From Verrucomicrobiota bacterium (GTDB lineage: Bacteria; Verrucomicrobiota; Verrucomicrobiia; Limisphaerales; CANJSG01), in NCBI GenBank assembly GCA_038209745.1, contig JBBQXJ010000056.1:1-32460 (forward strand): a DNA stretch of 32,460 bases. Direction: 5' to 3'. Made by a program: the position numbers and the translations under genes. This document shows positions 1 through 14,035 of this stretch, piece after piece. The stretch's first letter is position 1, and every line of letters begins with the position of its first letter. The notes beneath the pieces are model-generated. The model was not told the DNA's origin and ran no database searches. It saw nothing but the letters and a program-made list of their open reading frames with translations.

Positions 1-139
1 GGAAGGCCTCAACAGCGTCTTCTCCGCCGTCAAGCGCAAGGCCCGCGGCTTCCGCTCCACCAAGAACCTCATCACCATGCTCTACTTCACCGCCGGCCGC
101 CTCGACCTACCCTCTACCCACTGAAAACAGCGAGGAACC
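1..139 (+). mobile_element. Right end of an ISL3-family insertion sequence
   Basis: Transposase tail followed by ...CTACCCACTGAAAACAGCGAGGAACC ending at 139. Its reverse complement GGTTCCTCGCTG... resembles an ISL3 terminal IR. The AT-rich 8-mer TCAAAACG (140-147) could be the target duplication, but the other end is outside the window. Confidence 0.75.
2..124 (+). CDS. ISL3-family transposase, C-terminal end (truncated by window start)
   Basis: Frame 2 reads EGLNSVFSAVKRKARGFRSTKNLITMLYFTAGRLDLPSTH*, matching the ISL3 C-terminal EGxN...KRxARG(F/Y)R motif. Not in the ORF track. Confidence 0.85.
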   Translation, partial: EGLNSVFSAVKRKARGFRSTKNLITMLYFTAGRLDLPSTH

Positions 140-155
140 TCAAAACGATGCACGG

Positions 156-1112
156 TCACGGCTTGGCCTCCGCCGGGTTTTTCCGGCTGCGGAGAGATTC
201 AAGGGCCGGATATAGGTCCGCCAAGGTCCCTATCTTCAGGGCTCGTATTTCCTCTATGGCGTCGAGGTAGCCGGACGTGGCCCGTCCACCGACGAGAATG
301 GAAACGCTGGCCGGGAGAAACTTGCGCAGACTCACCAGTTCCCCCGCGAGAAACGGGTCGTCGTCCGGATACACGATGCTGAGCAGCACCGCGCGGGCTC
401 CGTTCAAGCGCACGGCGCCCGCGATCTCCGCCGCCGGCAGCGACGTGCCCAGGTAGGTCACGCGCCAGCCCTGGTTCCGCGCCGCGGCCGCCACGATGAT
501 GGCGCCCAGTTCGTGCAGCTGCCCTGCCGGAGTCGCGACGATCAGCCCCGGAGCCGTGTCGGACGGGGCGAATGGGCGGGAGGTGTTCCACAGGAAAACG
601 CGGATGGCGTCGCTGGCGAAATGTTCGTGCGCGATGGTCAATTCCCCCGCGCGCCATCGCGCTCCCACCTCGACCGTCAGAGGAGCGATCACGTGCCCCA
701 GCATCGCCTGATGCCCCAGATCGACGAGGGCCTCCGAGAGAAGCCGATCAAGCTTCGCTTGATCCATCCGGACGATGGCCTCCACACACTCCGGTCGGAT
801 TCGGTCCGCCAATACTTCCATCCGGGGACGACCCACGACCGTCGCGGGTCCCGCGTCCGCCGGCTCGATCGAGATCAATTCCCGCAGGGTCTCATCCGAC
901 AGCCGCGCGATGTTGGAGATGCCGTGCCCGCCCTGAGTCGCCCGCCGCAGCAGCTTCAGCCGCTCGACCTCCTCCGAACTGTAAAGCCTTCTATTGGAAT
1001 CGGTCCGGCTGGGCGTAACCGCCCCATAACGCTTCTCCCATATCCGGATGACGTGGGCATTGAGACCGGTCTGTTGGGCGACGGCTTTGATAGTGTGAAG
1101 GGCATCCGACAT
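156..1112 (-). CDS. carH: MerR-family, cobalamin-binding photoreceptor/repressor (CarH/LitR type)
   Basis: N-terminal MerR HTH with IRIWEKRYG...R.Y; W-x9-EH motif (WRAGELTIAHEH); B12 Rossmann motif GQLHELG...YLG...SIV...VGG; divergent from carotenoid genes. Confidence 0.88.
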   Translation of the reverse strand: MSDALHTIKAVAQQTGLNAHVIRIWEKRYGAVTPSRTDSNRRLYSSEEVERLKLLRRATQGGHGISNIARLSDETLRELISIEPADAGPATVVGRPRMEVLADRIRPECVEAIVRMDQAKLDRLLSEALVDLGHQAMLGHVIAPLTVEVGARWRAGELTIAHEHFASDAIRVFLWNTSRPFAPSDTAPGLIVATPAGQLHELGAIIVAAAARNQGWRVTYLGTSLPAAEIAGAVRLNGARAVLLSIVYPDDDPFLAGELVSLRKFLPASVSILVGGRATSGYLDAIEEIRALKIGTLADLYPALESLRSRKNPAEAKP

Positions 1113-1121
1113 AGGCGATCT

Positions 1122-1288
1122 GACTTAGACAAATTTTGAACGGTTAACCGGGTAGCACTTCGGATCCGCAATGTAAAGGGACCCGGAATTAACCAAATCG
1201 CCAATGCAACCCACTGAATCCATGCCGATTCGATACATGTTAAACAAAACTTTGACAATCCATTTGAACATAAACAATACTTAGACAG
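1122..1288. promoter_or_regulatory. Divergent promoter region with CarH-type 11-bp direct-repeat operators and a consensus -35
   Basis: AT-rich spacer. nAnnTnnACAn matches at 1122-1132, 1248-1258, 1267-1277 and 1278-1288; TnnACA pairs spaced 11 bp (1241/1252, 1271/1282); TTGACA at 1252-1257. Confidence 0.75.
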
Positions 1289-1320
1289 TCAGACAACGCG
1301 AACCTCAAACCTCACTCGCC

Positions 1321-2472
1321 ATGTTCAACAAAATTCCCCTCAGCTCCAATTCGGTAATCCGGACTCAACCCGCTCTTTTGAAGGCCGCTCCTAGATTGAG
1401 CCTGCCCGCCCAAGCACGACTGCTCTCCAAGGCAACCTTGGACCCAGTGCGGAAGCCCGTCGCGGTAGCGAAGACCCGGCCCAGCCGAACTGGCAAAGTT
1501 CGTTCGACCAACCGACTGAGTCCAGTCACGTCCGGCTTCCGAACCCAAGCGGTCGAGGCTTTGCCGCCGATCATCGTGATGCGGGACCCGATTCCCGTGA
1601 CCCGTCAGGAGGAATCCTCCAAACCCGCTGTCCGCGCCCCCTACGACTCCGATTCGTCCCTCAGCCTCTACATGCGCCACGTCGGTGAAGTGCCCTTGCT
1701 GACCATCGCGGAGGAGATCGCCCTGGCCGCCCGGATCAAGGCCGGCGACGACATCGCCCGGGAACACATGATCCGCGCGAACCTCCGGCTCGTCGTGAAA
1801 ATCGCCCGGGAATATGAAAACCTCGGTCTCCCGCTGCTCGACCTGATCAACGAAGGCAACATTGGTCTGATGAAGGCGGTCGAACGCTTCGACCCGGCCA
1901 AGGGGGGCAAGCTTTCCACCTACGGTTCCTGGTGGATCAAACAGTCCATCCGCCGCGCCTTGGCCAACCAGTCGAAGACCATCCGCCTGCCGGTCCACGT
2001 GGTCGACAAGCTCTGCAAGATTCGCCGTGCCGCCAACCTCCTCCACGAAGTCCTCGGCCGCGACCCGACGGATGACGAATTGGCCGTCGAGATGAACATG
2101 CCCGCTTGGCGAATCGCGGAGATGCGGGCCGCCTCGGTCCGTCCCGCCTCTCTCGAAGCGCCACTCGGGGACGATGATTCGTCCCGCCTGAGCGATGTCG
2201 TCGAAGATCAGAACGCCGTCGATCCGTTCCAGGACCTCCAGGACAAGTCGATGACCCACATGGTCCTCGATTTCGTGGAGGAACTGCCCGAACGCGAAGC
2301 CACCATCCTCCGTCGCCGTTTCGGACTGGACGGAGACAAGGAACAAACGCTGGAAGAGATCGGCCAACGTTTTGGAGTGACGCGGGAGCGCATCCGACAG
2401 CTCCAGAACATCGCACTGGCCAAACTCCGCCGGATGGTGGAGAAGATGGAGTCGTTTGGCGAAGCGGCTTGA
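1321..2472 (+). CDS. RNA polymerase sigma-70 factor, RpoD/RpoS-like (regions 1.2, 2, 3, 4; non-ECF)
   Basis: LSLYMRHVGEVPLLT (1.2), ANLRLVVKIA...DLINEGNIGLMKAVERFD...STYGSWWIKQSI (2), TLEEIGQRFGVTRERIRQ (4.2). Start uncertain (ATG 1321 or 1579); no acidic region 1.1. Confidence 0.92.
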   Translation: MFNKIPLSSNSVIRTQPALLKAAPRLSLPAQARLLSKATLDPVRKPVAVAKTRPSRTGKVRSTNRLSPVTSGFRTQAVEALPPIIVMRDPIPVTRQEESSKPAVRAPYDSDSSLSLYMRHVGEVPLLTIAEEIALAARIKAGDDIAREHMIRANLRLVVKIAREYENLGLPLLDLINEGNIGLMKAVERFDPAKGGKLSTYGSWWIKQSIRRALANQSKTIRLPVHVVDKLCKIRRAANLLHEVLGRDPTDDELAVEMNMPAWRIAEMRAASVRPASLEAPLGDDDSSRLSDVVEDQNAVDPFQDLQDKSMTHMVLDFVEELPEREATILRRRFGLDGDKEQTLEEIGQRFGVTRERIRQLQNIALAKLRRMVEKMESFGEAA

Positions 2473-2501
2473 AGCGCGATTCGAGCACCACCACCACTCC
2501 C

Positions 2502-3230
2502 ATGGTTACGCTCATCTTCGGAGGCACCGGCGGCATCGGTTCGGAACTCGCCCGGCAAATGGCGGCTTGCGGCGACACCGTGGTCGTGGCCGGCCGCAGT
2601 TCAGAAAAGGTCGCATCCATCCCGAACACGACGGGCATCGTTGGGCGGGTGGTGGACGCGACCCGCTCCGACGCCGTGGAAGAATTGATCCGCTCGACCG
2701 TCGAAGAACATGGGCAACTTGACGCGGTGGCGAACTGCATCGGTTCGCTCCTTCTAAAACCCGCCCACCTGACGACGGACGATGAATGGGTCGAAACCCT
2801 GGCCACCAACTTGACGACCTCTTTCGTCATCCTCCGCGCCTGCGTCCGCCAGATGATGAAACAGCGTTCTGGTTCGCTGGTGCTCCTGGCTTCCGCGGTC
2901 GCCGAACGCGGCATGGTCAACCATGAGGCCATCGCCGCGGCCAAAGGCGGAGTCGCCTCGCTCGCCCGCTCCGCCGCCGCCACCTACGCCCGCTATGGCA
3001 TCCGGGTGAACTGCATCGCGCCGGGTCTTGTGCAGACACCGCTCACCCGATCCATCACCGAAAGCGAACCCAGCCTCAAAGCCTCGGTCTCGCTGCACCC
3101 GCTCGGACGCATCGGCCAGCCCTCCGAAGTCGCCGCCGCGATCCATTGGTTTCTGCGACCCGAGCAGGGATGGATCACCGGCCAATGTCTCGGGGTCGAC
3201 GGAGGCCTGTCCACTCTTCAAGCCCGCTGA
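2502..3230 (+). CDS. Short-chain dehydrogenase/reductase (SDR), atypical active site
   Basis: GGTGGIG Rossmann motif, IRVNCIAPG and WITGQCLGVDGG; HEAIAAAK occupies the YxxxK position. Start at ATG 2502, or TTG 2469 overlapping the sigma stop. Confidence 0.88.
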   Translation: MVTLIFGGTGGIGSELARQMAACGDTVVVAGRSSEKVASIPNTTGIVGRVVDATRSDAVEELIRSTVEEHGQLDAVANCIGSLLLKPAHLTTDDEWVETLATNLTTSFVILRACVRQMMKQRSGSLVLLASAVAERGMVNHEAIAAAKGGVASLARSAAATYARYGIRVNCIAPGLVQTPLTRSITESEPSLKASVSLHPLGRIGQPSEVAAAIHWFLRPEQGWITGQCLGVDGGLSTLQAR

Positions 3231-3246
3231 AAACACACCAAAGTCC

Positions 3247-4788
3247 ATGAGCAAAGAAGCCCTCATCATCGGCGCCGGTCCCGGCGGTCTGGCCTCGGCC
3301 ATCCTCCTCGCCGCCGCAGGTGTCCGCACCCGGATCATCGAGCGTCTGCCAGTTGTAGGCGGGCGCACCTCGTCCATCGAAGCCGACGGCTTCAAGTTCG
3401 ATCTCGGGCCCACCTTCTTCCTCTACCCGCGCGTGCTGGAGGAGATCTTCGCCGCCGCCGGCACGACCCTGGCCCGCGAAGTCGAGATGGTCCGGCTCGA
3501 CCCCCAGTACCGCATCATGTTCGGCAGCGGCGGACAGATCGACGCCACCCCGGACGAGCAGCGCATGGCCGCCGAAATCGCCAAGCTCTCGCCCCAGGAC
3601 GCGGGCGGTTTCCGGCGCTTCATGGACGAGAACCGCGCCAAACTGAAAGCGTTCGAACCAATCCTCGAATCGCCCTTCGTCGGCTTCAAGGACCTCCTCA
3701 ATCCCAAGCTGTTCAAAGCGCTCCCATTCCTGCATCCGACCAAATCCCTCGACGGCTACTTGGAGCGCTTCTTCAAAGATCCACGCGTGCGGTTGGCCTT
3801 CTGTTTCCAGTCGAAATACCTCGGCATGTCTCCGTTCCGCTGCCCGAGCCTCTTCTCTATCCTGTCGTTTCTGGAATACGAATACGGCGTCTTCCACCCC
3901 ATCGGCGGCTGTGCGGCCGTGACCCAGGCCATGGCGCGCCTCGCCGAACGCATGGGCGTAGAAATCCATCTCGGAGAACCCGTCGAAGAGATGCTCTTCA
4001 CCGGGAAAAAAGCCACCGGCGTCCGGACGTCCAAAGCCTCCTACAAGGCCGACGCCGTGGTGGTGAACGCCGATTTCGCCCGGGCGATGAAGTCACTCGT
4101 GCCCGACGCGCTCCGCTCCAAATGGACCGATGCCAAGCTCGCGAAGAAGAAGTACTCCTGCTCGACCTTCATGATGTATCTCGGCGTGGACGGCACCTTC
4201 GACCTGCCCCACCACACCATCCACATCTCCGGCGACTACGAGAACAACCTCGAAGACATCGAGAGCCGCCACGTCCTCAGCGAAGACCCCTCGTTCTACG
4301 TCCAGAACGCCAGCGTGACCGACTCCTCACTGGCGCCCAAGGGCCAGAGCGCCCTCTACGTCCTCGCACCGGTCACCCACCAGCACGGCAACGTCGATTG
4401 GCAGAAGGAGACCCCGGGGTTCCGCGCGCTCGTGCTGAAGCAAATGCGCAAAGCCGGCTTCGAGCTGAAGCAAAAGAACATCAAGTTCGAACGCGTCATC
4501 ACGCCCAATGACTGGGAAAACCGCTACCAGATCTATCGTGGCGCCACCTTCAACCTTGCGCACAGCATGGATCAGATGCTTCTGATGCGTCCTCGCAACC
4601 GTTTCGAGGATCTCGAATCCGTGTATCTTGTCGGTGGCGGCACCCATCCCGGAAGCGGCCTGCCCGTGATCTTCGAATCCGCGCGCATCTCCACCCGGCT
4701 CATGCTCGAAGACTTCGGTCTCAGTACCGCCAAGCTCCGGGCGCCCGCTGCGAAAGCACCATGCCCGTTGTCATTGGAAACCGCTTAA
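3247..4788 (+). CDS. crtN: Phytoene-desaturase-family protein, CrtN-like (C30 diapophytoene desaturase)
   Basis: MSKEALIIGAGPGGLA FAD motif, FKFDLGPT and C-terminal YLVGGGTHPGSGLP. Start reassigned to ATG 3247. The CrtN (rather than CrtI) call rests on context. Confidence 0.8.
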   Translation: MSKEALIIGAGPGGLASAILLAAAGVRTRIIERLPVVGGRTSSIEADGFKFDLGPTFFLYPRVLEEIFAAAGTTLAREVEMVRLDPQYRIMFGSGGQIDATPDEQRMAAEIAKLSPQDAGGFRRFMDENRAKLKAFEPILESPFVGFKDLLNPKLFKALPFLHPTKSLDGYLERFFKDPRVRLAFCFQSKYLGMSPFRCPSLFSILSFLEYEYGVFHPIGGCAAVTQAMARLAERMGVEIHLGEPVEEMLFTGKKATGVRTSKASYKADAVVVNADFARAMKSLVPDALRSKWTDAKLAKKKYSCSTFMMYLGVDGTFDLPHHTIHISGDYENNLEDIESRHVLSEDPSFYVQNASVTDSSLAPKGQSALYVLAPVTHQHGNVDWQKETPGFRALVLKQMRKAGFELKQKNIKFERVITPNDWENRYQIYRGATFNLAHSMDQMLLMRPRNRFEDLESVYLVGGGTHPGSGLPVIFESARISTRLMLEDFGLSTAKLRAPAAKAPCPLSLETA

Positions 4789-4792
4789 GCCC

Positions 4793-6643
4793 ATGAACGC
4801 CGCAGCTGATCCGGAAAACCACCATGGACACCCGTGGGCCGAACCGACCAAAGCTGTGGCTGGAAATGGAAATTCACCAAATCCCTTACCCGGCCTCCGG
4901 CCACCCTCTCTCCGTCGGACGGGGAGAGGGCAGGGTGGGGGCCTGCGGCGACTCGTTCGAACAGACTCCTTTTTTCAGAACGGTGATGAGCACGCCTTCG
5001 GCGGAACGGCAGCGCAGCCCCACCCGCCCGGTCGGGCTGCGCTGCCGCGCAGCGCCGGCTTCAACTCGCCGCCGGACCAGGCAAAGGTCGTCCTCCTGGC
5101 AGCCCGCTCGGCTCAAGCAGCTTGGCGCACTGTGGCGATCCAAGACCGTCTCGCCATCGTGCGTCGCGTCCGCCATCTCATCGCCGAACGCGCCGACTGG
5201 TTGACGGAAAGCCTCGCTCTTTCCCGCCCACGTCCTGCCGCCGAACTGATCACCTCCGAGATCATTCCGCTCGCCGAAGCCTGCCGCTTCTTGGAGCGGC
5301 AAGCATCTCGTCTCCTCAAAGCCCGCAAGCTGGGCAACGCAGGACGGCCACTGTGGTTGAGTTCCGTGCAGACGACCGTTTCCCGCGAACCGCTCGGAGT
5401 CGTTCTCATCCTCGCGCCGTCGAACTACCCGCTCTTCCTCGCCGCGGTGCAGACATTGCAGGCGCTGGTCGCCGGCAACGCCGTGTTGCTCAAACCGGCC
5501 CCCGGCTGCATCGACGCCCTGCTCGCTTTCCGCCAACTTGCCGAAGAAGCCGGACTGCCTGCGTCGCTGCTCCAGCTCCTCCCGGAAAATCCGGCCGCCG
5601 CTCGCGCCTTGATGAAGCTAGGCGTGGACAAAGTCGTGCTCACCGGCTCGGCCGAGACCGGCGCCACCATCCTCGCCGAACTCGCTCCCACGCTCACCCC
5701 GGCCACGGTGGAACTCTCCGGCAGCGACTCTGTCTTCGTCCGCTCCGACGCCGACTTGGATCTCGTCGCCCGCGCCTTGACCTTCGGCCTCCGTCTCAAC
5801 AACGGAGCCACCTGCATCGCTCCACGACGCGTCTTCGTCCCCCACGAACTGCTGGCCGCACTGGAAACCAAACTCGCAGCGGCGCTTGGCGAGCTGGGAC
5901 CTCTTCCCATCAACGAGCAAACCTGGAGCAAAGCCGCCCCGCTCATCGATGCCGCCCTCAGATCCGGCGCCCGCTATTTCGCAGGAAGTGGTAGGGCGAA
6001 GGCTCCCGCCGAGCCACCCGCCTCTGGTTCCAGAGCCGCCGATTTCGAACCCGGTTCCCCTCAAGGCGCCTCGGCAGGAGCGTTGGCCCCACCGTTCGGC
6101 CCCATTCTCCTGGCCCACGTCCCGCCCGCCGCCGCTCTTTTCCGCGAAGACCTCTTCGCCCCGATCCTTTCGTTGGTCCCGGTGAGCGACGACTCCGAGG
6201 CGGTGCGCTTCGCTGCCGAGTGCCCCTACGCGCTGGGAGCCTCCATCTTTTCCCGCGATGAATCCGCCGCCAGCGCCTTGGCCAACCAGGTCCGCGCCGG
6301 CGTGGTCACGATCAACGACCTGATCGTCCCGACTGCCGATCCACGCATTCCTTTCGGCGGACGCGGCCGTAGCGGCTTCGGCGTCACGCGCGGGGCGGAA
6401 GGCTTGCTGGAGATGACCGTTCCCAAAGTCGTCGCCGTGCGACGCTCCCGTTTCCTTCCGCACTTCGACGCCCCGAAGCCCGGCGACGCGGCGCTCTTCA
6501 CCGCGTTTCTCCGCCTGTCCCACAGCGGCGATTGGTCGTCGCGTTTGAGCGCCTTGCGCCAAGTCTTCCACGGCTTCCGACGGCGCGACCACGACCCGGA
6601 CGCGGCACCGGTCAAACCTTCAACCCGAAAGAATCTCCCATGA
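4793..6643 (+). CDS. Aldehyde dehydrogenase (diapocarotenoid-aldehyde dehydrogenase AldH/CrtNc-like)
   Basis: REPLGVVLILAPSNYP, LKPA, LTGS, catalytic ELSG and NNGATC, EDLFAP, PFGGRGRSGFG. The N-terminal ~95 aa and an internal ~35 aa look repeat-derived. Confidence 0.88.
   Translation: MNAAADPENHHGHPWAEPTKAVAGNGNSPNPLPGLRPPSLRRTGRGQGGGLRRLVRTDSFFQNGDEHAFGGTAAQPHPPGRAALPRSAGFNSPPDQAKVVLLAARSAQAAWRTVAIQDRLAIVRRVRHLIAERADWLTESLALSRPRPAAELITSEIIPLAEACRFLERQASRLLKARKLGNAGRPLWLSSVQTTVSREPLGVVLILAPSNYPLFLAAVQTLQALVAGNAVLLKPAPGCIDALLAFRQLAEEAGLPASLLQLLPENPAAARALMKLGVDKVVLTGSAETGATILAELAPTLTPATVELSGSDSVFVRSDADLDLVARALTFGLRLNNGATCIAPRRVFVPHELLAALETKLAAALGELGPLPINEQTWSKAAPLIDAALRSGARYFAGSGRAKAPAEPPASGSRAADFEPGSPQGASAGALAPPFGPILLAHVPPAAALFREDLFAPILSLVPVSDDSEAVRFAAECPYALGASIFSRDESAASALANQVRAGVVTINDLIVPTADPRIPFGGRGRSGFGVTRGAEGLLEMTVPKVVAVRRSRFLPHFDAPKPGDAALFTAFLRLSHSGDWSSRLSALRQVFHGFRRRDHDPDAAPVKPSTRKNLP
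4904..4930. repeat. REP-like hairpin within the aldH 5' extension
   Basis: CCCTCTCTCCGTC-G-GACGGGGAGAGGG; 13-bp arms with one G:T pair, inside CCCTTACCC...GGGTGGGGG flanks. Confidence 0.75.
5007..5047. repeat. Inverted REP pair within the aldH 5' extension
   Basis: CGGCAGCGCAGCCCCACC / GGTCGGGCTGCGCTGCCG, 17 of 18 complementary, 5-nt spacer. Confidence 0.8.
5990..6093. repeat. GTAG-type inverted REP pair (REPIN-like) inside aldH
   Basis: GGTAGGGCGAAGGCTCCCGCCGAG ... CTCGGCAGGAGCGTTGGCCCCACC, 20 of 24 complementary; related intergenic copy at 29220-29245. Confidence 0.8.
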
Positions 6644-8220
6644 CCTCCAACACCCACGACAAAATCGGCGTCATCGGCTCCGGCCTCGGCGGATTGGCCG
6701 CTGCCTGCACCCTGGCGGCCCGCGGCTATTCGGTGGTCCTCTTCGAGAAGAACGACTGGCTCGGCGGCAAGGCGGCGGAACATACCGACGCCGGTTTCCG
6801 CTTCGACATGGGTCCGACCATCCTCACCATCCCGTCGGTTCTGAAGCGGATCTATCAAGAAGCCGGCCTGCGCTTGGAGGACCACATCGATCTGGTCGAG
6901 CTGGATCCCCAGTGGCGTTCGTTCTTCAGCGACGGCTCCATTCTCGATCTCCACAAGAACACCGACCTGATGTGTCGGAACTTGGAGCGGTTCGCGCCGG
7001 GCAGCGGCACGGCCGAGGGTTACCGCAAGTTCCTCGGGCTCTCGGAGAAGCTGGACGACATCTCCCGGCGTTTCTTCTTCTGGAAGTCCATCGGCGGCAT
7101 GCGCGACATGTTCGACGCCAAGGCGTCCTTCAAACCGGGCGTCCTGAAAGACGTGCTCACCATGCGCATGGGTCGCACCGTCGGGGCGACCGTGCGCTCC
7201 CATGTGCCGGATGCGCGCGTGGCCCAGATGGTCGACCACTTCACCCAGTACGTCGGCTCTTCCCCGGACGCTTCGCCCGCCGTGCTCTGCGGCATCGCCC
7301 ACATGCAGACCGACGAAGGCGTGTGGTATCCGATGGGTGGCACCCGCGCCGTGCCCGTGGCTCTGACCAAGCTGGCCCGCAGTCTCGGAGTCGAGATCCG
7401 CACCGGCACCGGGATCCAGCGCATCCTCAACGACGGCACCCGCGTGACCGGTGTGGTCACGGATTCGGGAGACACCGTCCCCTTGGCGGCGGTGGTTTCG
7501 AACTGTGATTCCGTCCGCACCCACCGTGAACTGCTCGCCGGTGAACCCGCCGCGAAGAAGTTCGAAAAACGTCGAAGCTACGAAGCGGCCTGCTCCGGGG
7601 TGGTGCTGTATCTCGGCCTGAAAAAGCGTTACCCGCACTTGCTGCACCACAACTTCGTCTTCTCCCGAGATCCGCATGAAGAGTTCGACAGCATCTACCG
7701 GCAGGGCGAACCCGCGCCCGACCCCACCGCCTACGTCTGCGCTCCGGCGATCACCGATCCCGGCGTCGCCCCTGATGGATGCGAATCCCTCTACGTGCTC
7801 GTCCACACGCCCTATCTCCGGCCCCACCACGACTGGAAGAAGATGCTCCCCGCCTATCGCCGCGTGATCCTCGACAAGCTGGCCAGCACCGCCGGTTTGA
7901 AGGATCTGGAGGCGAACATCGTCACCGAGCGCGCGCTCACTCCGCAGGACATCCACGACCGCTACCGCGTGCTCAACGGCGCGATCTACGGATTGGCCAG
8001 TCACGGCCGGTTCTTCGGCGCATTCAAACCCGGCAACCGCAGCAACGATCTCTCCGGTTTCTACCTCGCCGGCGGCGCGGCCCATCCCGGGCCCGGCATG
8101 CCGATGGTGATGATGTCCGGCTGGATCGCCGCCGACGCGCTGGACCAGGACGGGAAAGTCCCCAAGGCGCCCCGCGCCCCCAGTGAACAATTCAGCGAAG
8201 CGGATGCCGTAGCCGCGTAA
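6640..8220 (+). CDS. crtP: Phytoene-desaturase-family protein, CrtP/CrtNb-like diapolycopene oxygenase
   Basis: IGVIGSGLGGLAAA, FRFDMGPTILT, QYVGSSP...AHMQ...GVWYPMGG and YLAGGAAHPGPGMPMV. ATG 6640 overlaps the aldH stop (ATGA). Confidence 0.8.
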   Translation: MTSNTHDKIGVIGSGLGGLAAACTLAARGYSVVLFEKNDWLGGKAAEHTDAGFRFDMGPTILTIPSVLKRIYQEAGLRLEDHIDLVELDPQWRSFFSDGSILDLHKNTDLMCRNLERFAPGSGTAEGYRKFLGLSEKLDDISRRFFFWKSIGGMRDMFDAKASFKPGVLKDVLTMRMGRTVGATVRSHVPDARVAQMVDHFTQYVGSSPDASPAVLCGIAHMQTDEGVWYPMGGTRAVPVALTKLARSLGVEIRTGTGIQRILNDGTRVTGVVTDSGDTVPLAAVVSNCDSVRTHRELLAGEPAAKKFEKRRSYEAACSGVVLYLGLKKRYPHLLHHNFVFSRDPHEEFDSIYRQGEPAPDPTAYVCAPAITDPGVAPDGCESLYVLVHTPYLRPHHDWKKMLPAYRRVILDKLASTAGLKDLEANIVTERALTPQDIHDRYRVLNGAIYGLASHGRFFGAFKPGNRSNDLSGFYLAGGAAHPGPGMPMVMMSGWIAADALDQDGKVPKAPRAPSEQFSEADAVAA

Positions 8221-8229
8221 GGACCGTCG

Positions 8230-9147
8230 ATGGCCGCACACGCCCAACCGAATCAGACGAGCCACCCCCGCTCAGTGGCACAGGCGCTGCCGCCTGCCGA
8301 TTCGGGCGTGGGTGCCCGGAGAACGGCCAACGGCGAGGACGGCTGTGCCACTAGGCCTCCGCACGTCTCGCCTTGGCTGCTGAATTGGTTCGGCCGTTAC
8401 ACCGCCCACTACCTGCGCAGCCACTTCTCCCACGTCTGGCTGGCAGGAGAGGTTCCCCGGCTCGAAGGCCGACCCGTCATTGTCTTCGCCAACCATGCTT
8501 CGTGGTGGGACCCGCTCGTCTGCCTCCATCTGCATCGCAAGTGCTTTGCGGACCGCCCCGCCTTCGCTCCCATCGACGCAAAGGCTCTAGCGCGATATGG
8601 AATCCTCGGGCGGCTTGGCTTCTTCCCGGTGGAACAAGACTCCCGACGCGGTGCCGTCCAATTCCTCCGGGCCAGTCAAGCGATACTGGCCGATCCCGAC
8701 GCCATGCTCTGGCTCACACCCCAAGGAGAATTCCAGGACCAACGCGCCCGACCCTTGCGCTTCAAGCCCGGTCTCGCCCATCTCGTCGGAAGGCTCGACG
8801 CCGCGCTGCTCGTCCCCTTGGCGATCGACTATTTCCACGGTGTCGAGCGTCTGCCCGAGGTGGCCGTGCGTTTCGGCGAACCCATCGAGGTAGCCTCTGA
8901 AGGAACGAGGCGGATCGAGAGCGGACGTCCGGCTCGTCACCTCGGCGGCTACTCGTCCTTTGAAAACGCTCTCGAACAGACCCAGGACCAACTCGCCGAG
9001 GATGTGATGCATCGATCCACCCGTCCTCTCTCGTCCCTGCTTTCGGGTCGCAGCGGCATCGGCGGGATCTACGACCTCTGGCGCCGCGCGAACGCGACGC
9101 TCCGGGGCAGACATTTCGAGGCGGGCCACGGAGATCTGTTGAAATGA
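8230..9147 (+). CDS. PlsC/lysophospholipid-acyltransferase-family protein (probable glycosyl-carotenoid acyltransferase)
   Basis: NHASWWD (HxxxxD), LTPQG and FKPGLAHL motifs; lies between the crtP-like and crtQ-like genes. Confidence 0.82.
   Translation: MAAHAQPNQTSHPRSVAQALPPADSGVGARRTANGEDGCATRPPHVSPWLLNWFGRYTAHYLRSHFSHVWLAGEVPRLEGRPVIVFANHASWWDPLVCLHLHRKCFADRPAFAPIDAKALARYGILGRLGFFPVEQDSRRGAVQFLRASQAILADPDAMLWLTPQGEFQDQRARPLRFKPGLAHLVGRLDAALLVPLAIDYFHGVERLPEVAVRFGEPIEVASEGTRRIESGRPARHLGGYSSFENALEQTQDQLAEDVMHRSTRPLSSLLSGRSGIGGIYDLWRRANATLRGRHFEAGHGDLLK
8274..8352. repeat. Inverted repeat element in the acyltransferase 5' region
   Basis: Perfect 10-bp ends AGTGGCACAG ... CTGTGCCACT with partial further pairing. 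Confidence 0.65.
8890..8952. repeat. 63-bp GTAG-type palindromic element, exactly in frame in the acyltransferase
   Basis: GTAGCCTCTGAAGGAACGAGGCGGA ... TCCGGCTCGTCACCTCGGCGGCTAC, 19 of 25 complementary; encodes VASEGTRRIESGRPARHLGGY. Confidence 0.75.
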
Positions 9148-10403
9148 CGACGCTGCTCCTCATCTGCGCGGTGCTGGCGTTCATTCCCGTCGGACAGTTT
9201 CTGGTCAACCTGTTCTGCTATCGACCGCTGCCGCTCCCAAAAGGTGGACCGGCAGGTCCGTCCTGCCAGGCCGGTGGGGCCGCCTTGCCGCGCAGCCCTG
9301 ACTTCCCCTCGCCACAAGGCGAGTCACCGGCCGTATCCGTCCTCATTCCCGCCCGCAATGAAAGCGCCTCCATTGAAGCCGCCGTCCGATCGGCCTTGAT
9401 CGACCCGAATCCCCACCTTGAAGTCGTGGTGCTCGACGATCATTCCAGCGATGACACCGCCGATATCGTCCAGCGGATTGCCGTCGAAGATCCGCGCGCC
9501 GTGCTCCACCACGCGCCTCCGCTTCCAGCCGGGTGGTGCGGCAAACAGCACGCCTGCCACGTGCTCTCCAGACTGGCGCGTCACGAATGGTTTCTCTTCA
9601 TGGATGCCGACGTCCGCCTGGCTCCAGGATCCGTGGATCGCATGGTAGACTTCGCCAATCGCCAGAAAGCGGACCTGATAAGCGGTGTTCCGCGACAGCT
9701 CACCGGAACCTTCTCCGAACGGCTGCTGATTCCTCTGATCCACTTCGTCCTTCTCGGATATCTGCCGATGCTGCTCATGCGATTGAGTCGGGCACCCGCA
9801 TTCGCCGCCGGCTGCGGTCAGCTCTTCCTCACCCGCCGGGGGGCCTACCGCCTCAGCGGAGGCCACGCGGGCATCCACTCGTCTCTGCACGACGGGCTCA
9901 GCCTTCCCGCTCTGTTCCGCGTCGCCGGGTTTCGCACCGATCTCTTCGACGCCACCCAGGAAGCCGTGTGCCGAATGTATCGAAGCAACGCCGAGGTCTG
10001 GGCCGGGCTTGGGAAAAACGCCACCGAAGGCCTCGGCCATCCCGCACGCATCCTGCCGATGACCCTCCTGCTCATCGGAGGCCAGGTGCTCCCGTGGTTT
10101 CTCCTGCCGTGGAGCTGGCAGGCCGGAGACGCCTGGTGGCGCTTCAGCCTGTTGGTGGTCGCCCTGCCGCTGGCGATCCGCCTCATCGCGGCCCGGCGCT
10201 TCCGGCAGTCGCTGCTCGGGGCCCTCCTCCATCCGCTGGGCGTGGCAGCGCTCATCTGGATCCAGTGGTGCGCCCTGTTCCGACAGTGGCGCGGGCAGCC
10301 GCAGAGCTGGCGCGGGCGGATCTATCCTCCCGTCGTCACCACCTCCAAGGCAGGTTTGATCGCGCCTTCACCCATCGCCCCGTGCGACCCTCCTCGGCTG
10401 TGA
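9144..10403 (+). CDS. crtQ: GT2 glycosyltransferase, CrtQ-like (diapocarotenoate glycosyltransferase)
   Basis: VSVLIPARNE, VLDDHSSD, GWCGKQHAC, FMDADV and C-terminal TM helices; ATGA overlap with the acyltransferase. Confidence 0.82.
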   Translation: MTTLLLICAVLAFIPVGQFLVNLFCYRPLPLPKGGPAGPSCQAGGAALPRSPDFPSPQGESPAVSVLIPARNESASIEAAVRSALIDPNPHLEVVVLDDHSSDDTADIVQRIAVEDPRAVLHHAPPLPAGWCGKQHACHVLSRLARHEWFLFMDADVRLAPGSVDRMVDFANRQKADLISGVPRQLTGTFSERLLIPLIHFVLLGYLPMLLMRLSRAPAFAAGCGQLFLTRRGAYRLSGGHAGIHSSLHDGLSLPALFRVAGFRTDLFDATQEAVCRMYRSNAEVWAGLGKNATEGLGHPARILPMTLLLIGGQVLPWFLLPWSWQAGDAWWRFSLLVVALPLAIRLIAARRFRQSLLGALLHPLGVAALIWIQWCALFRQWRGQPQSWRGRIYPPVVTTSKAGLIAPSPIAPCDPPRL

Positions 10404-10981
10404 ATCCCTCCGCTGTCCGACTCAACATACTGCGTCTCGCCACGCTTCTCTGGTGTCTGGTTGGAATGAGGGTCCAAGCAGAAGCCCCTCCAAAGCCGGC
10501 TCCGGATCGATTCCATCCATTCCAACTCCCGGACCAGTTCCGCCACGCGCACGTCGTCGTGTTCACCAACGCTCCGCTCCAGCTCCTGACCGTCGCGGAC
10601 CAGAAAGGGGCCCGCGGAATGGACGGATGGATCGAAGCCGTGAAAACCCGCTTCGGAACGAACCTCCCCATGATCGCCGTGGCCGATGTGTCCACGGTGC
10701 CGCGACTTCTGCGCGGCTTCATTCGCGGCAAGTTCGTCGATCGCTACCCGTATCCGGTGCTGCTCGATTTCACGGGCGACACCATCGCCGCGTGGAGGCC
10801 GCAGACCGGCCAGCCGAACCTCTACCTCGTGGCAAACGACGGGAAAGTGCTCGGCCGTTTCGTCGGCCACGCTACGCCTTCAAACACGGATCCGCTCCTC
10901 AGCCTGATCGAAACGCAGCGTGTGGACCCAACGGCCGAAACCAACGCTCCACCGAATTCTGTCCGCAGTTCCAAGCCCTAG
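10400..10981 (+). CDS. Secreted hypothetical protein, thioredoxin-like fold without CxxC
   Basis: GTG start overlapping the crtQ stop (GTGA); signal-like N-terminus; FQLPDQF...PVLLDFTG...YLVANDGKV pattern. It is the 3' part of track ORF 9533..10981. Confidence 0.65.
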   Translation: MNPSAVRLNILRLATLLWCLVGMRVQAEAPPKPAPDRFHPFQLPDQFRHAHVVVFTNAPLQLLTVADQKGARGMDGWIEAVKTRFGTNLPMIAVADVSTVPRLLRGFIRGKFVDRYPYPVLLDFTGDTIAAWRPQTGQPNLYLVANDGKVLGRFVGHATPSNTDPLLSLIETQRVDPTAETNAPPNSVRSSKP

Positions 10982-11475
10982 CCGGACGGAGGTTCCCCGG
11001 GTCGGACGTCGTTCAAATCCCCGGCGAAACCCTGTTGGCGCAGCGCCTCGTAGAGCGTCAAGGCCACACAGTTCGACAGGTTCAGGCTGCGCGCCTTGGG
11101 ATTGAACATCGGGATGGTCAGCCAGCGATCGGGGAACCGTTCCAGGAGCGCTTTGGGCAGGCCCGCCGTTTCGCGACCAAAGACCAGGTAGTCGTCGGGA
11201 CCGAACTTCGCCTCGGAGTAGCGCGTCGCCCCCTCCTGTTCGATGAACCAGAGCTTCGCACCGGCAGGCAACTCCGCCTCGAAAGCCGGCCAGTTCGACC
11301 AACGATGCCAGACGAGGTGCCGCCAGTAATCCATGCCGGCGCGCTTCAGCCGGGAGTCGTCGATCTGGAATCCCAGCGGCTCGATCAGATGCAGCGTGGT
11401 GAACGTCGCCGCGCAGAGCCGGGCGATGTTGCCGGTGTTGGGCGGGATCTCCGGTTCGACAAGGACGACGTGCAT
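10978..11475 (-). CDS. trmL: tRNA (cytidine/uridine-34 2'-O)-methyltransferase
   Basis: MHVVLVEPEIPPNTGNIARLCA, KRAGMDYW, FGRETAGL and RSLNLSN SPOUT motifs; start reassigned to 11475. Confidence 0.95.
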   Translation of the reverse strand: MHVVLVEPEIPPNTGNIARLCAATFTTLHLIEPLGFQIDDSRLKRAGMDYWRHLVWHRWSNWPAFEAELPAGAKLWFIEQEGATRYSEAKFGPDDYLVFGRETAGLPKALLERFPDRWLTIPMFNPKARSLNLSNCVALTLYEALRQQGFAGDLNDVRPGEPPSG

Positions 11476-11523
11476 GGAGATCGAAACGGATTTAGCCGGG
11501 CAAAGGCGAACGCCCGGGAGAAC

Positions 11524-11667
11524 AACCCCAGACGGACCCAACTGGACCTAGATGCCCGCGCCTCTCGGAGTCCATGAATTTGGCGAGTCCATGGTGCGGA
11601 CACGGCTGAGACGGGCAGGGCACTCCTGCGAATTTCAATCTGTGTTCATCTGTGTCCATCTGTGGTT
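11524..11667. repeat. Inverted pair of 3x10-bp tandem-unit arms (ATCTGTGTTC-type)
   Basis: AACCCCAGACGGACCCAACTGGACCTAGAT ... ATCTGTGTTCATCTGTGTCCATCTGTGGTT, 22 of 30 complementary. Confidence 0.7.
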
Positions 11668-11688
11668 TCCCTTCCGAAGGCCATCGCC

Positions 11689-12495
11689 CTATTCGCCGGT
11701 TTCGTTCGGGTCTGCGGATTGCGTGCCCTTGGCCTTCTTCCCGTAAAACACCTTCCACAAGACAAGCCCGTGCGCTGGCGCGGTCATTCCGGCGAGGCGG
11801 CGGTCCCTGCCTTCGAGGATCTCGCGGATGTCAGCGGGTTGGATGCGGCCTTCGCCGACCTGGACGAGCGTGCCGACGATGCCGCGGCACATTTTGTAGA
11901 GGAACGCGGTCCCGCGGATGACCACGGTGTGAAGCGGACCGGTGCCGCGAATCGTGACTGCGGTCAGCGTGCGGACGGTGTGGGCCGTGTCGTAGTCCGG
12001 ATTGGCGCGGAACGAGCGGAAGTCGTGCGTGCCGACGAAGTGTTTCGCCGCCGCGCGCATGGCCGCCAGATCGAGCGGCTTCTTCACGTGCCACGACTGT
12101 TTCCTCAGGAGCGGGTGGTGGGCGGCGTGGTTCCAGAGAAGGTAGCGATATTCCTTTCCGCTGGCGTCGAAGCGCGCGTGGAAGTTCTGCGGGGGATGCG
12201 ACGCCGCCAGGACCCGGACGTCTTCCGGCAAGTGCGCGTTCACCGCCAGCACCAGCTTCGTCGGCGTCATCCGCGCCTCGGTTTTGGGCACCTCGAAGTG
12301 GACGACCATGCCAACGGCGTGGACTCCGGTGTCGGTGCGGCTGGAGCTGTGGACGCGCGGTCCGCAGGAAAAGAGCTTGGCCAACGCCTTCTCCAGAATC
12401 TCCTGCACGCCCGTGCCAACGACCTGCATTTGCCAGCCTTGGTAGCCCGCGCCGTCGTAGCCGACGGTCAGGCGGTATTTGACGCTGTCCATCAT
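11689..12495 (-). CDS. truA: tRNA pseudouridine(38-40) synthase
   Basis: YDGAGYQGWQ, SSRTDTGVHA, FHARF, GTHDFRSF and FLYKMCRGIVG...TAPAHGL. Confidence 0.95.
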   Translation of the reverse strand: MMDSVKYRLTVGYDGAGYQGWQMQVVGTGVQEILEKALAKLFSCGPRVHSSSRTDTGVHAVGMVVHFEVPKTEARMTPTKLVLAVNAHLPEDVRVLAASHPPQNFHARFDASGKEYRYLLWNHAAHHPLLRKQSWHVKKPLDLAAMRAAAKHFVGTHDFRSFRANPDYDTAHTVRTLTAVTIRGTGPLHTVVIRGTAFLYKMCRGIVGTLVQVGEGRIQPADIREILEGRDRRLAGMTAPAHGLVLWKVFYGKKAKGTQSADPNETGE

Positions 12496-12541
12496 CGCCC
12501 GATCTTCCGAGGTGCCCGTCTTGGGGCTGTCTCCAGAGAGC

Positions 12542-12675
12542 AACCACGGATTGACACGGTTGGACCCAGTTGGAGGCGTCTCTCCAGGAAGACGAACCGG
12601 AAGCTCGCCACCAAACCATCAGCCAGCGAAGTCGCTACTCCCATGATGTGTGTTCATCTGTGTCCATCGGTGGTT
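12542..12675. repeat. Second copy of the 3x10-bp inverted element
   Basis: AACCACGGATTGACACGGTTGGACCCAGTT ... ATGTGTGTTCATCTGTGTCCATCGGTGGTT; the right arm is 28/30 identical to 11638-11667. Confidence 0.75.
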
Positions 12676-12688
12676 GAAACCCGCCGGT

Positions 12689-13108
12689 TCAGACATTGCC
12701 GCCGATGGCGTCGAGGTAGCTCTGGAGCAGCAGCGCGGCGGCCATCTTGTCCACCTTCTCGCGCTTGTCCTTGGTCTTCACGCCGCGCTCGCTCATCAGG
12801 CGGTTGGCCTGCACGGAGGTCAGGCGCTCGTCCCAGGAACGCACCGGAATGGGGATGATCTCCTTCAGCACGATGATGAACTGCCGGACCTTCTCGGCGG
12901 CAGGACCGTAGCTGCCGTCCATGTTGCGCGGCATCCCGACGACGATCTGTTCGACCTCCTTTTCGCGGATGAGCAGTTTGAGCCGATCGACGAAAGCATT
13001 GAATGGCTCCGCTGGAATGAACTCCAGCGGATGGGCCAGCATCTTCAATTCGTCGCTAACGGCGACGCCGATCCGGACGGTGCCGTGGTCGAGGGCAAGA
13101 ACGCGCAT
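12689..13108 (-). CDS. ruvX: Holliday-junction-resolvase-like / pre-16S rRNA nuclease YqgF
   Basis: LALDHGTVRIGVAVSD, VVGMP, WDERLTS and VDKMAAALLLQSYLD. Confidence 0.95.
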   Translation of the reverse strand: MRVLALDHGTVRIGVAVSDELKMLAHPLEFIPAEPFNAFVDRLKLLIREKEVEQIVVGMPRNMDGSYGPAAEKVRQFIIVLKEIIPIPVRSWDERLTSVQANRLMSERGVKTKDKREKVDKMAAALLLQSYLDAIGGNV

Positions 13109-13161
13109 GGCGGGACGCTAGCGGCCGGGCGAAGGGGTTTCCAGTCCGGTGACTGGAGAAG

Positions 13162-13962
13162 TCATTTCCGTTGTTGCGACCCAGCGGCCTCAGCCGCTTC
13201 ACCAGCCGCCGCGGCTGCTGGGCCAAACTTGCGCAGCACGGCCTTCGCTCGCTGCCCCAGGCCTAGCTCTGCATGTTCCATGAACTCCACCAATTGTGGG
13301 ACGCAGTCTTCAGTTCGACTCGGGATGACTTCCATCGCCATCACCGCAACAGAATGGCGGTATTCGGATTTGGTCCGGTTCAAGCCTTCGGCGATGAAAG
13401 ACACAGCGGGAGAAGCGGCTTTGTTTAGGTTGACCAAGACACTGACTGTGTTCGCCCACTGCGCGTCATCGATGCTACCCTCCAATTCGTCGATCAAGGT
13501 CTGGATCGGCTCGTTTCGAATGCGAAACAGGGCGCCTCTCGCAAAAATCGGCAGATTCAGGTCGCCGTCCGATCCCGCCAACGCGACGGCTCTCTCCAAA
13601 GCTGGAATGGCCACCGCCGCCCTCGGACCCAACCGACCCAATCCGATCGCGGCTTCGGCACGATGATGAACCTTCATCGGAACCCGAATGCGCCAATTCC
13701 AAGCCGCCTGTTGAAGCCAAATCATGGGGCCAGAAGGCCTCCATTCCACCTCGTCGATCAGCCACCTCACGGCCCGATCATCCATCTCTGAAAATGCAGC
13801 CAAAGCTTCTTCGTCGGCATCCGAATTGACCCTTTCCCGCTCGATCCAGTGGCTGATCGGCTGCCCACGACAGACCGGCTCGGAGCGTGAACGCACGAAC
13901 CAAGCCCCGGCTGCCACAGCGGCAACCAAGGCGATCAGCGCTAATGTCCGTCTGCGTTTCAT
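13162..13962 (-). CDS. Hypothetical membrane-anchored HEAT-repeat-like protein
   Basis: Basic plus hydrophobic N-terminus; AAIGLGRLGPRAAVAIPAL and VLRKFGPAAA HEAT-like helical repeats; more A/T-ending codons than its neighbours. Confidence 0.65.
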   Translation of the reverse strand: MKRRRTLALIALVAAVAAGAWFVRSRSEPVCRGQPISHWIERERVNSDADEEALAAFSEMDDRAVRWLIDEVEWRPSGPMIWLQQAAWNWRIRVPMKVHHRAEAAIGLGRLGPRAAVAIPALERAVALAGSDGDLNLPIFARGALFRIRNEPIQTLIDELEGSIDDAQWANTVSVLVNLNKAASPAVSFIAEGLNRTKSEYRHSVAVMAMEVIPSRTEDCVPQLVEFMEHAELGLGQRAKAVLRKFGPAAAAAGEAAEAAGSQQRK

Positions 13963-14035
13963 GGGAATTTCACCTCGGTGTTCGGCGATTGAGGGAGGCT
14001 AAGGCGCAGGCCGTAGGTTGGCGAGCGGTTGGACG

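Follow-up and report, generated by a model that had tools for sequence, protein, structure and literature searches.

An RpoD-like sigma factor gene under a predicted B12-photoreceptor operator at the head of a carotenoid operon in Limisphaerales: a candidate two-step light cascade

The DNA analysed here, hereafter the window, is a stretch of 32,460 nucleotides (nt) from a Verrucomicrobiota bacterium of the order Limisphaerales (assembly GCA_038209745.1, contig JBBQXJ010000056.1, positions 1 to 32,460), in which the gene of a CarH/LitR-type regulator lies divergent from that of a non-primary sigma-70 factor heading a carotenoid (crt) operon. We consider it likely that this arrangement works as a two-step cascade of the LitR-LitS type, with an RpoD-like sigma in the place of the extracytoplasmic function (ECF) one. 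Because a conserved CarH-type operator overlies the sigma promoter, light- and B12-dependent expression of the window sigma together with the pigment genes, already suspected in a preliminary description of this DNA, is very probable on sequence grounds. The elements that carry this reading are the following.

156..1112, minus strand: carH/litR-type gene (318 amino acids, aa) encoding MerR helix-turn-helix, four-helix-bundle and Rossmann B12-binding domains (Pfam; alignment to Thermus CarH)
1125..1142: Site 1, two 11-bp direct repeats of the TnGACA type, the second copy ending ACG, 13 nt from the carH start codon (read from the sequence)
1241..1287, plus strand: Site 2, four CarH-type 11-bp direct repeats over the sigma promoter, with ACA at 1244, 1255, 1274 and 1285 (spacing 0/11/30/41; read from the sequence)
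1252..1281, plus strand: promoter-like site, −35 TTGACA at 1252-1257 (= repeat 2) and −10 at 1275-1281, either CAATAC with a spacer of 17 or AATACT with a spacer of 18 (consensus scan)
1321..2472, plus strand: non-primary, group-2-like sigma-70 (383 aa) with regions 1.2, 2, 3 and 4 and a basic, variable N-terminal stretch of ~110 aa (Pfam, NCBIfam, trees)

The preliminary description had recognised a CarH/LitR-type repressor divergent from a sigma-70 gene with regions 1.2, 2, 3 and 4, an assignment borne out by the Pfam domains of both products and by the 208-nt spacing between carH (minus strand) and the sigma gene (plus strand). The regulator matches MerR_1 (1.8e-16, residues 7-73), B12-binding_2 (2.1e-12) and B12-binding (1.5e-11), and is alignable with Thermus CarH (5C8D/3WHP) at an E value of about 2e-31, its MerR part pairing with the Thermus DNA-binding domain. 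The W-x9-E-H signature and the lower-axial (cobalt-ligand) His of Thermus CarH are retained in register; from structural work on the Thermus protein we take the former to lie over the adenosyl group and the latter to be the lower-axial ligand. The product reads as a class I member, which in the published CarH/LitR scheme is the AdoB12-based type (PMC9758184, in excerpt), and the regulator would accordingly be expected to depend on adenosylcobalamin (AdoCbl) and light. The genome of origin (4.58 Mb, 92% complete, with the window as contig C56) encodes a PduO-type cobalamin adenosyltransferase, and no CobA-type enzyme was found in it.

To place the repeats in context, we compared 77 carH upstream regions, namely that of the window and those of the 76 out of 80 related loci with at least 200 nt upstream, against twenty shuffles per region (1540 in total). 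Repeat pairs within 45 nt of the carH start were present in 58 of the 77 regions versus 21 of the 1540 shuffles, and Site 1 is likely an autoregulatory operator over the carH promoter or leader. All four ACA cores at the 0/11/30/41 spacing of Site 2 occurred in 38/77 regions and three of them in 10/77, the other 29 scoring two or one; no shuffle had four and 24/1540 had three. Repeat 2 is exactly TTGACA in 41 of these 48 high-scoring sites, with CATATT as the most frequent hexamer 17 nt beyond it. The repeat cores of Site 2 also fit the published CarH consensus nAnnTnnACAn, reported for operators that overlap sigma-A promoters (PMC8156234, in excerpt). In the window the repeats span both the −35 and the −10 element, so that the TTGACA previously noted under the operator lies indeed inside the array, at 1252-1257. 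Array and promoter-like site are located 34-80 nt upstream of the sigma start. A consensus scan of positions 1-14000 on both strands returned 1252..1281 as the sole sigma-70-type promoter match, with no second promoter-like site between the array and the sigma start or ahead of the short-chain dehydrogenase/reductase (SDR) gene that follows.

The sigma product matches the Pfam models of Sigma70 r1_2, r2, r3 and r4 at 1.7e-10 to 2.7e-18, and the same scan reported no region 1.1. ECF (group 4) sigmas such as LitS and CarQ have regions 2 and 4 only; possession of regions 1.2 and 3 sets the window sigma outside this group. Its scores lie below every NCBIfam RpoD and RpoS equivalog cut-off (for RpoS, 301 against 378.7 with TIGR02394 and 297.7 against 394 with NF004207), and the closest solved structures are SigA and RpoS chains, over 260-residue alignments. 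Used as a query on its own genome, it retrieved four matches: itself, a paralogue on contig C48 (58%), a 717-aa protein on C72 and a distant 291-aa protein on C42. The C72 protein is the primary RpoD, as it has region 1.1, canonical region 2.4, 3.0 and 4.2 stretches, and scores of 596.9 with NF004208 (cut-off 555) and 394.2 with RpoD_Cterm (cut-off 354). The possibility, raised in the preliminary description, that the window sigma might itself be the primary RpoD is hence excluded. Both proteins share an identical region 4.2 recognition stretch. In region 2.4 the window sigma has R where the primary RpoD has T, at what we take to be T440 of E. coli sigma-70, and in region 3.0 it has D versus E (E. 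coli numbering presumed); the former change hints that the window sigma may read −10 elements differently.

Downstream of the sigma gene, the plus strand carries the following genes.

2503..3230, plus strand: short-chain dehydrogenase/reductase (adh_short_C2, 9.5e-54); likely start ATG 2503, 30 nt past the sigma stop (TTG 2469 in the open reading frame, ORF, list)
3247..4788, plus strand: CrtI/CrtN-family carotenoid desaturase (NCBIfam crtI_fam, 536 bits against a cut-off of 238)
4793..6643, plus strand: aldehyde dehydrogenase, probably a carotenoid aldehyde dehydrogenase (Pfam Aldedh, 2.6e-82)
6640..8220, plus strand: second CrtI/CrtN-family enzyme, CrtP/CrtNb-like by context (crtI_fam, 411.7 bits); its start overlaps the aldH stop (ATGA)
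8230..9147, plus strand: acyltransferase (Pfam Acyltransferase, 9.3e-08)
9144..10403, plus strand: family 2 glycosyltransferase (GT2), CruG/HpnB-like (Pfam Glycos_transf_2, 1.8e-19; NCBIfam matches under their cut-offs)
10453-11577 and 11662-12858, plus strand: two ORFs, possible operon tail (ORF list; no Pfam or NCBIfam match)

The sigma gene had been described as the first of a carotenoid operon, and the same-strand SDR, two CrtI/CrtN, aldehyde dehydrogenase, acyltransferase and GT2 genes agree with this. Co-transcription is likewise consistent with gaps of −4 to +49 nt, all on the plus strand, with the conserved gene order, and with the scan of 1-14000, in which no plus-strand terminator-like site appeared from the sigma to the genes that follow it. 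The two tail ORFs gave zero blast matches in the 80 related loci, most of which end short of this point. The domain content of the operon suggests a glycosylated, acylated C30-type carotenoic acid as its pigment product; both squalene/phytoene-synthase genes of the genome sit on contigs other than C56. The window and three related loci were also compared with Rfam at gathering thresholds, without a match.

We propose the following course of events. In the dark, a tetramer of AdoCbl-loaded CarH would occupy the four 11-bp repeats over the −35 (TTGACA) and −10 elements of a housekeeping-type promoter, as well as the repeat pair at its own gene, keeping both divergent units off. Light would photolyse the cofactor and CarH would leave the DNA, whereupon RNA polymerase carrying the primary sigma (or another of the resident ones) would transcribe one long mRNA for the group-2-like sigma and the enzymes of a glycosylated, acylated C30-type carotenoid. 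The sigma, thereby produced only in the light, would direct polymerase to further photoprotection genes devoid of a CarH operator. Dependence on AdoCbl and light, the start of transcription and the targets of the sigma are what we infer in this scheme, which draws on the domains, operator-promoter overlap, gene packing, non-primary status and recurrent linkage read in this and related DNA.

The adjacency of carH and the sigma gene extends well beyond this genome, to which it might, as initially considered, have been unique. Within the genus, carH is divergent from an orthologous sigma gene (66-76% identity) in 5 of 6 other genomes, and in the sixth both genes touch contig ends. CarH is present in 131 of 301 sampled genomes of Limisphaerales. 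A sample of one genome per family (34 genomes, G007-G040), for which coordinates from protein searches were confirmed on fetched DNA, contained CarH in 12, eight of them with a divergent sigma alongside. Further, we sampled 80 CarH loci from related records of metagenome-assembled genomes; nine were short of upstream DNA, leaving 71 assessable. A linked sigma, defined as one within 1.5 kb on the strand divergent from carH, was found at 23 of these 71, all in Limisphaerales. Over all samples, linkage recurs in at least nine families. The linked sigma holds the first or second place in the operon while the other cargo varies: crt genes come next in 12 loci (three of which have a fasciclin gene in between), genes for a PQQ propeller, a photolyase or an amine oxidase in seven, and nothing recognised or a contig end in four. 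A sample of 401 genomes of the phylum contained CarH in 15; at 13 CarH loci outside Limisphaerales in this sample no sigma gene was found within 6 kb, seven facing a fasciclin gene and one an amine oxidase-DUF1365 pair.

Fasciclin is in fact the commonest divergent carH neighbour in the phylum sample, and it heads 15 of the 71 Limisphaerales loci, or 22 counting those with crt or sigma genes behind it. A leader of ~170 nt (L114:7618-7827, minus strand, and 14 other loci) separates the start codon of the fasciclin gene from the CarH-controlled promoter; it is conserved at the nucleotide level and includes a 5' hairpin that shows a few compensatory changes and perhaps an upstream ORF read in a different frame. 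It has no Rfam match, and the fasciclin leader of the window's own genome is different. Other genes recurrent in CarH-facing operons (L105, L132, L141, L163, L164, L114, L118, L120, L072) encode a PQQ_2 beta-propeller, a DNA photolyase, DoxX_2, DUF2071, a DUF6268 outer-membrane-like protein, and an amine oxidase with DUF1365, along with a UvdE-like UV endonuclease recognised by eye and blast only. Taken as a set, the CarH-facing operons of the order resemble a mosaic regulon for light damage. A conserved two-helix membrane protein of ~65 aa (L094:5748-5945, minus strand; first gene in L095 and L116) is another recurrent product of CarH-controlled operons, whether or not these include a sigma; its MF-x-KI start resembles the MFNKI of the window sigma, by chance or as a trace of sigma gene insertion. 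We rejected this protein as an anti-sigma of the L094 sigma that it follows, since the same gene heads the sigma-less operons L095 and L116. Among public runs containing positions 100-5000 of the window, 19 of 20 were DNA runs, 18 of them labelled sediment metagenome and one soil, and the sediment label is unexpected for a light-response module.

We then related carH linkage to sigma phylogeny, using quick IQ-TREE searches with support from the SH-like approximate likelihood-ratio test (SH-aLRT) only. L004 and L109, two of three very long rows (the third being L003) that distorted a first tree, were left out of the trees used here, the second of which has 27 more rows. In the 56-row tree, rooted on primary RpoD, one clade holds all 31 CarH-linked sigmas (SH-aLRT 89), and 22 unlinked sigmas form a tight clade of their own. 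For two members that were checked, identity between families is 80-92%, and in the loci checked each of these sigma genes is followed by a phosphoribosyltransferase gene. Addition of 20 more unlinked paralogues and seven more linked sigmas gave an 83-row tree, in which 27 of the 38 linked sigmas, that of the window included, fall in one clade of 28 (SH-aLRT 91). The linkage label changes six times on this tree versus a shuffled mean of 27.5. Linkage to carH is strongly clustered on the sigma tree; a single origin is not established.

As to the unlinked sigmas, the loci checked in other families encode a highly conserved group-2-like protein of ~354 aa just ahead of the phosphoribosyltransferase gene, while the phosphoribosyltransferase neighbour in the window's own genome (C40:26285-26950) has no sigma beside it. 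At E <= 1e-40, seven genomes of the genus yielded at most three sigma matches each (two in one), of which the second were similar to the C48 paralogue. Judged from genomes of 78-93% completeness, the phosphoribosyltransferase-linked paralogue may have disappeared from the genus.

The strongest argument for a cascade, albeit an argument and not a measurement, comes from loci in which the sigma gene appears to stand alone. In genomes of four families (G013, G015, G018, G021), blast with the light-gene set of the window detected none of these genes behind the sigma, and the nearest same-strand ORFs belong to unrelated Pfam families or to none. The gap from the sigma to the next ORF is 190-340 nt in three of the loci, and in the fourth a metallo-beta-lactamase-fold gene follows 7 nt on; elements consisting of CarH-type repeats plus TTGAC are present in the intergenic regions of all four. 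In at least three of the four, the CarH-controlled promoter appears to serve the sigma gene alone. In G015, G018 and G021, crt clusters of another layout are located elsewhere, with no repeat operator found within the 18 kb around them, and a close CrtN was not found in G013 or G034. Where the sigma is the only local target of the photoreceptor, the latter could act solely through the targets of the sigma.

These loci, together with the changed region 2.4 residue, make a separate regulon of the window sigma the favoured interpretation over self-amplification or a general stress role. The preliminary description had supposed a wider regulon redirected by the sigma and, perhaps, amplification of its own operon, and we, too, only infer either activity. 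More tentatively, and with slightly less than even confidence, we suggest that a lineage-specific clade of RpoD-like (group 2) sigmas could be the main output of the AdoCbl photoreceptor in Limisphaerales, controlling a dispersed photoprotection regulon of photolyase, UV endonuclease, DoxX/DUF2071 and unlinked carotenoid clusters.

Three other explanations deserve consideration. The sigma could lack a regulon of its own and merely boost derepressed CarH-controlled promoters, those of its own operon and of the fasciclin gene, as a positive-feedback amplifier. A paired-repeat scan of the window's own genome bears on this idea: it gave eight matches in six places, of which only the sigma promoter and a site at C3:32758 look real, the latter comprising three CarH-type 11-bp repeats followed by a TTGAC-like element (C3:32758-32800) ~200 nt ahead of a secreted fasciclin-domain gene (C3:32954-33367). 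A further repeat pair at C72:22927, flanked by ORFs without an informative family, was dropped as a probable chance match. Such a second CarH-type cluster, the perfect TTGACA of the controlled promoter and a region 4.2 stretch equal to that of the primary RpoD would all suit an amplifier. We nonetheless regard it as unlikely, given that with no recognised light gene behind the sigma in four families feedback alone would amplify nothing useful, that the same promoters serve genomes without a linked sigma, and that R instead of T in region 2.4 hints at a different reading of the −10 element.

Alternatively, the sigma may be a general-stress, RpoS-like factor with its own unrecognised promoter, hitch-hiking by carH, with CarH controlling only itself and the pigment genes. 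The position of the array and of the only promoter-like site immediately ahead of the sigma start, its first or second place in operons of differing cargo, and a linkage that is found in at least nine families and clustered on the tree render this very unlikely, even though the best NCBIfam matches of the window sigma include RpoS models (301 bits, under 378.7) and several such paralogues are unlinked to CarH in Limisphaerales genomes. It is also conceivable in principle, yet most improbable, that the regulator is no photoreceptor at all and reports B12 supply, or works without B12 like Myxococcus CarA, leaving the operon outside light control. CarA-type relatives that need no B12 do exist (PMC8156234, in excerpt), the regulator scores far under the CarH equivalog cut-off of NCBIfam, and the runs containing this DNA are mostly labelled sediment metagenome. 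On the other hand, the residues of AdoCbl photochemistry (W-x9-EH and the axial His) are all retained, and in relatives the same operator governs genes related to light damage, i.e. those of photolyase, UV endonuclease and carotenoid enzymes.

Several observations weigh against the proposed cascade. Two positions ahead of the axial His, the E of Thermus CarH is replaced by Q in the regulator, whose score of 124.5 bits with the CarH equivalog NF052513 (TransRegCarH) remains below the cut-off of 400, which is the threshold of one curated model and no mechanistic feature. A linked sigma is missing from as many as 48 of the 71 assessable CarH loci. In 20 of these the crt genes are driven directly, 15 have a fasciclin gene first, five an amine oxidase-DUF1365 pair and eight nothing recognised, so the window sigma is, as far as gene order tells, dispensable for control of crt genes by CarH; its absence from so many loci is also an indirect hint that it may be dispensable for growth, as expected of a group 2 sigma. 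The same TTGACA operator-promoter drives sigma-less operons, also in orders in which no linked sigma was found. Since this element also heads operons without a sigma, the first round of transcription would be independent of the linked sigma, and a consensus sigma-70-type promoter is uninformative on the specificity of that sigma. Nor was a promoter motif for the window sigma recognised upstream of the photolyase, UvdE, DoxX2/DUF2071 and squalene/phytoene-synthase genes of its own genome, read by eye with no formal motif discovery, or in an 18-kb scan about each unlinked crt cluster of G015, G018 and G021. In the 83-row tree, 10 linked and two unlinked rows are left basal and unresolved, one linked row falls inside a second unlinked clade that also holds the C48 paralogue, and one unlinked sigma lies inside the linked clade; the key branches of these quick trees have support below 95. 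Finally, a metatranscriptome run (X20, 9% of sampled words) returned for positions 100-5000 eight short contig pieces, 90-99% alike, none of which bridges genes. These pieces cover parts of the sigma and first desaturase genes, and we set them aside as support for expression, as they may stem from DNA carry-over.

Known B12-photoreceptor circuits act on effector genes directly or relay the signal through either a CRP/FNR activator or an ECF sigma. In the present arrangement, which recurs in many families of an abundant, mostly uncultured Verrucomicrobiota order, a sensor and operator of this type would control an RpoD-like sigma. If true, this would be the first B12-photoreceptor cascade to use a housekeeping-like sigma, and it would have arisen independently of the ECF-based cascades of Actinomycetota. 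An RpoD-like sigma would compete with the primary sigma for similar promoters and, if it had a separate regulon, the effect of light on transcription would reach further than that of a pigment switch. Operons with the sigma, operons without it and loci with the sigma alone offer a natural series for asking under which conditions a cascade takes over from direct repression. With its conserved 2+2 arrangement of repeats on top of a consensus promoter, the operator is also predicted to be a compact light-off/on element of foreseeable behaviour, and a possible optogenetic part.

Non-ECF sigmas are familiar as second-tier regulators in photo-oxidative or light responses from the RpoE to RpoHII singlet-oxygen cascade of Rhodobacter sphaeroides and from the light-responsive group 2 sigmas of cyanobacteria. 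Unlike the window sigma, these are induced via an ECF/anti-sigma pair or other signals, with no B12 repressor on the promoter. The preliminary description knew of no characterised example of the wiring in the window, and this stands insofar as the freely accessible full-text literature searched contained no description of a CarH-controlled RpoD-like sigma; it needs qualifying in that non-ECF sigmas of carotenoid or photo-oxidative circuits, such as CrtS and RpoHII, have precedent. CrtS of Streptomyces griseus is a non-ECF sigma of the SigB family whose expression switches on carotenoid production (PMC11519972). Unlike the window sigma, it belongs to group 3 and is SigB-like, and a link to light or to a B12 photoreceptor is not described in the excerpt of PMC11519972 consulted.

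LitR-LitS of Streptomyces coelicolor, in which AdoB12-LitR represses litR and litS from bidirectional promoters until light releases the sigma gene, and in which the crtE promoter is read by LitS, an ECF sigma (PMC11519972, in excerpt), resembles the window in having a MerR-type B12-photoreceptor gene divergent from a sigma gene, an operator over the shared control region and a role in a carotenoid circuit. Unlike LitS, an ECF (group 4) sigma with a dedicated crtE promoter, the window sigma is RpoD-like with regions 1.2 and 3; moreover, the window crt genes are predicted to share the transcript of the sigma instead of standing behind a sigma-specific promoter. With CarH of Thermus thermophilus and Bacillus megaterium, the window regulator has in common the three-domain build, the key residues and 11-bp repeats with T-n-n-A-C-A cores over a sigma-A-type promoter. 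The direct targets of those proteins are crt genes or, in Thermus, a CRP/FNR activator, not a sigma. The published CarH operators consist of three (Thermus) or four (Bacillus) tandem repeats (PMC8156234, in excerpt), whereas the four of the window are grouped two and two, with a step of 19 nt, not 11 or 22, from the ACA core of one pair to that of the next, and carH has another pair at its start.

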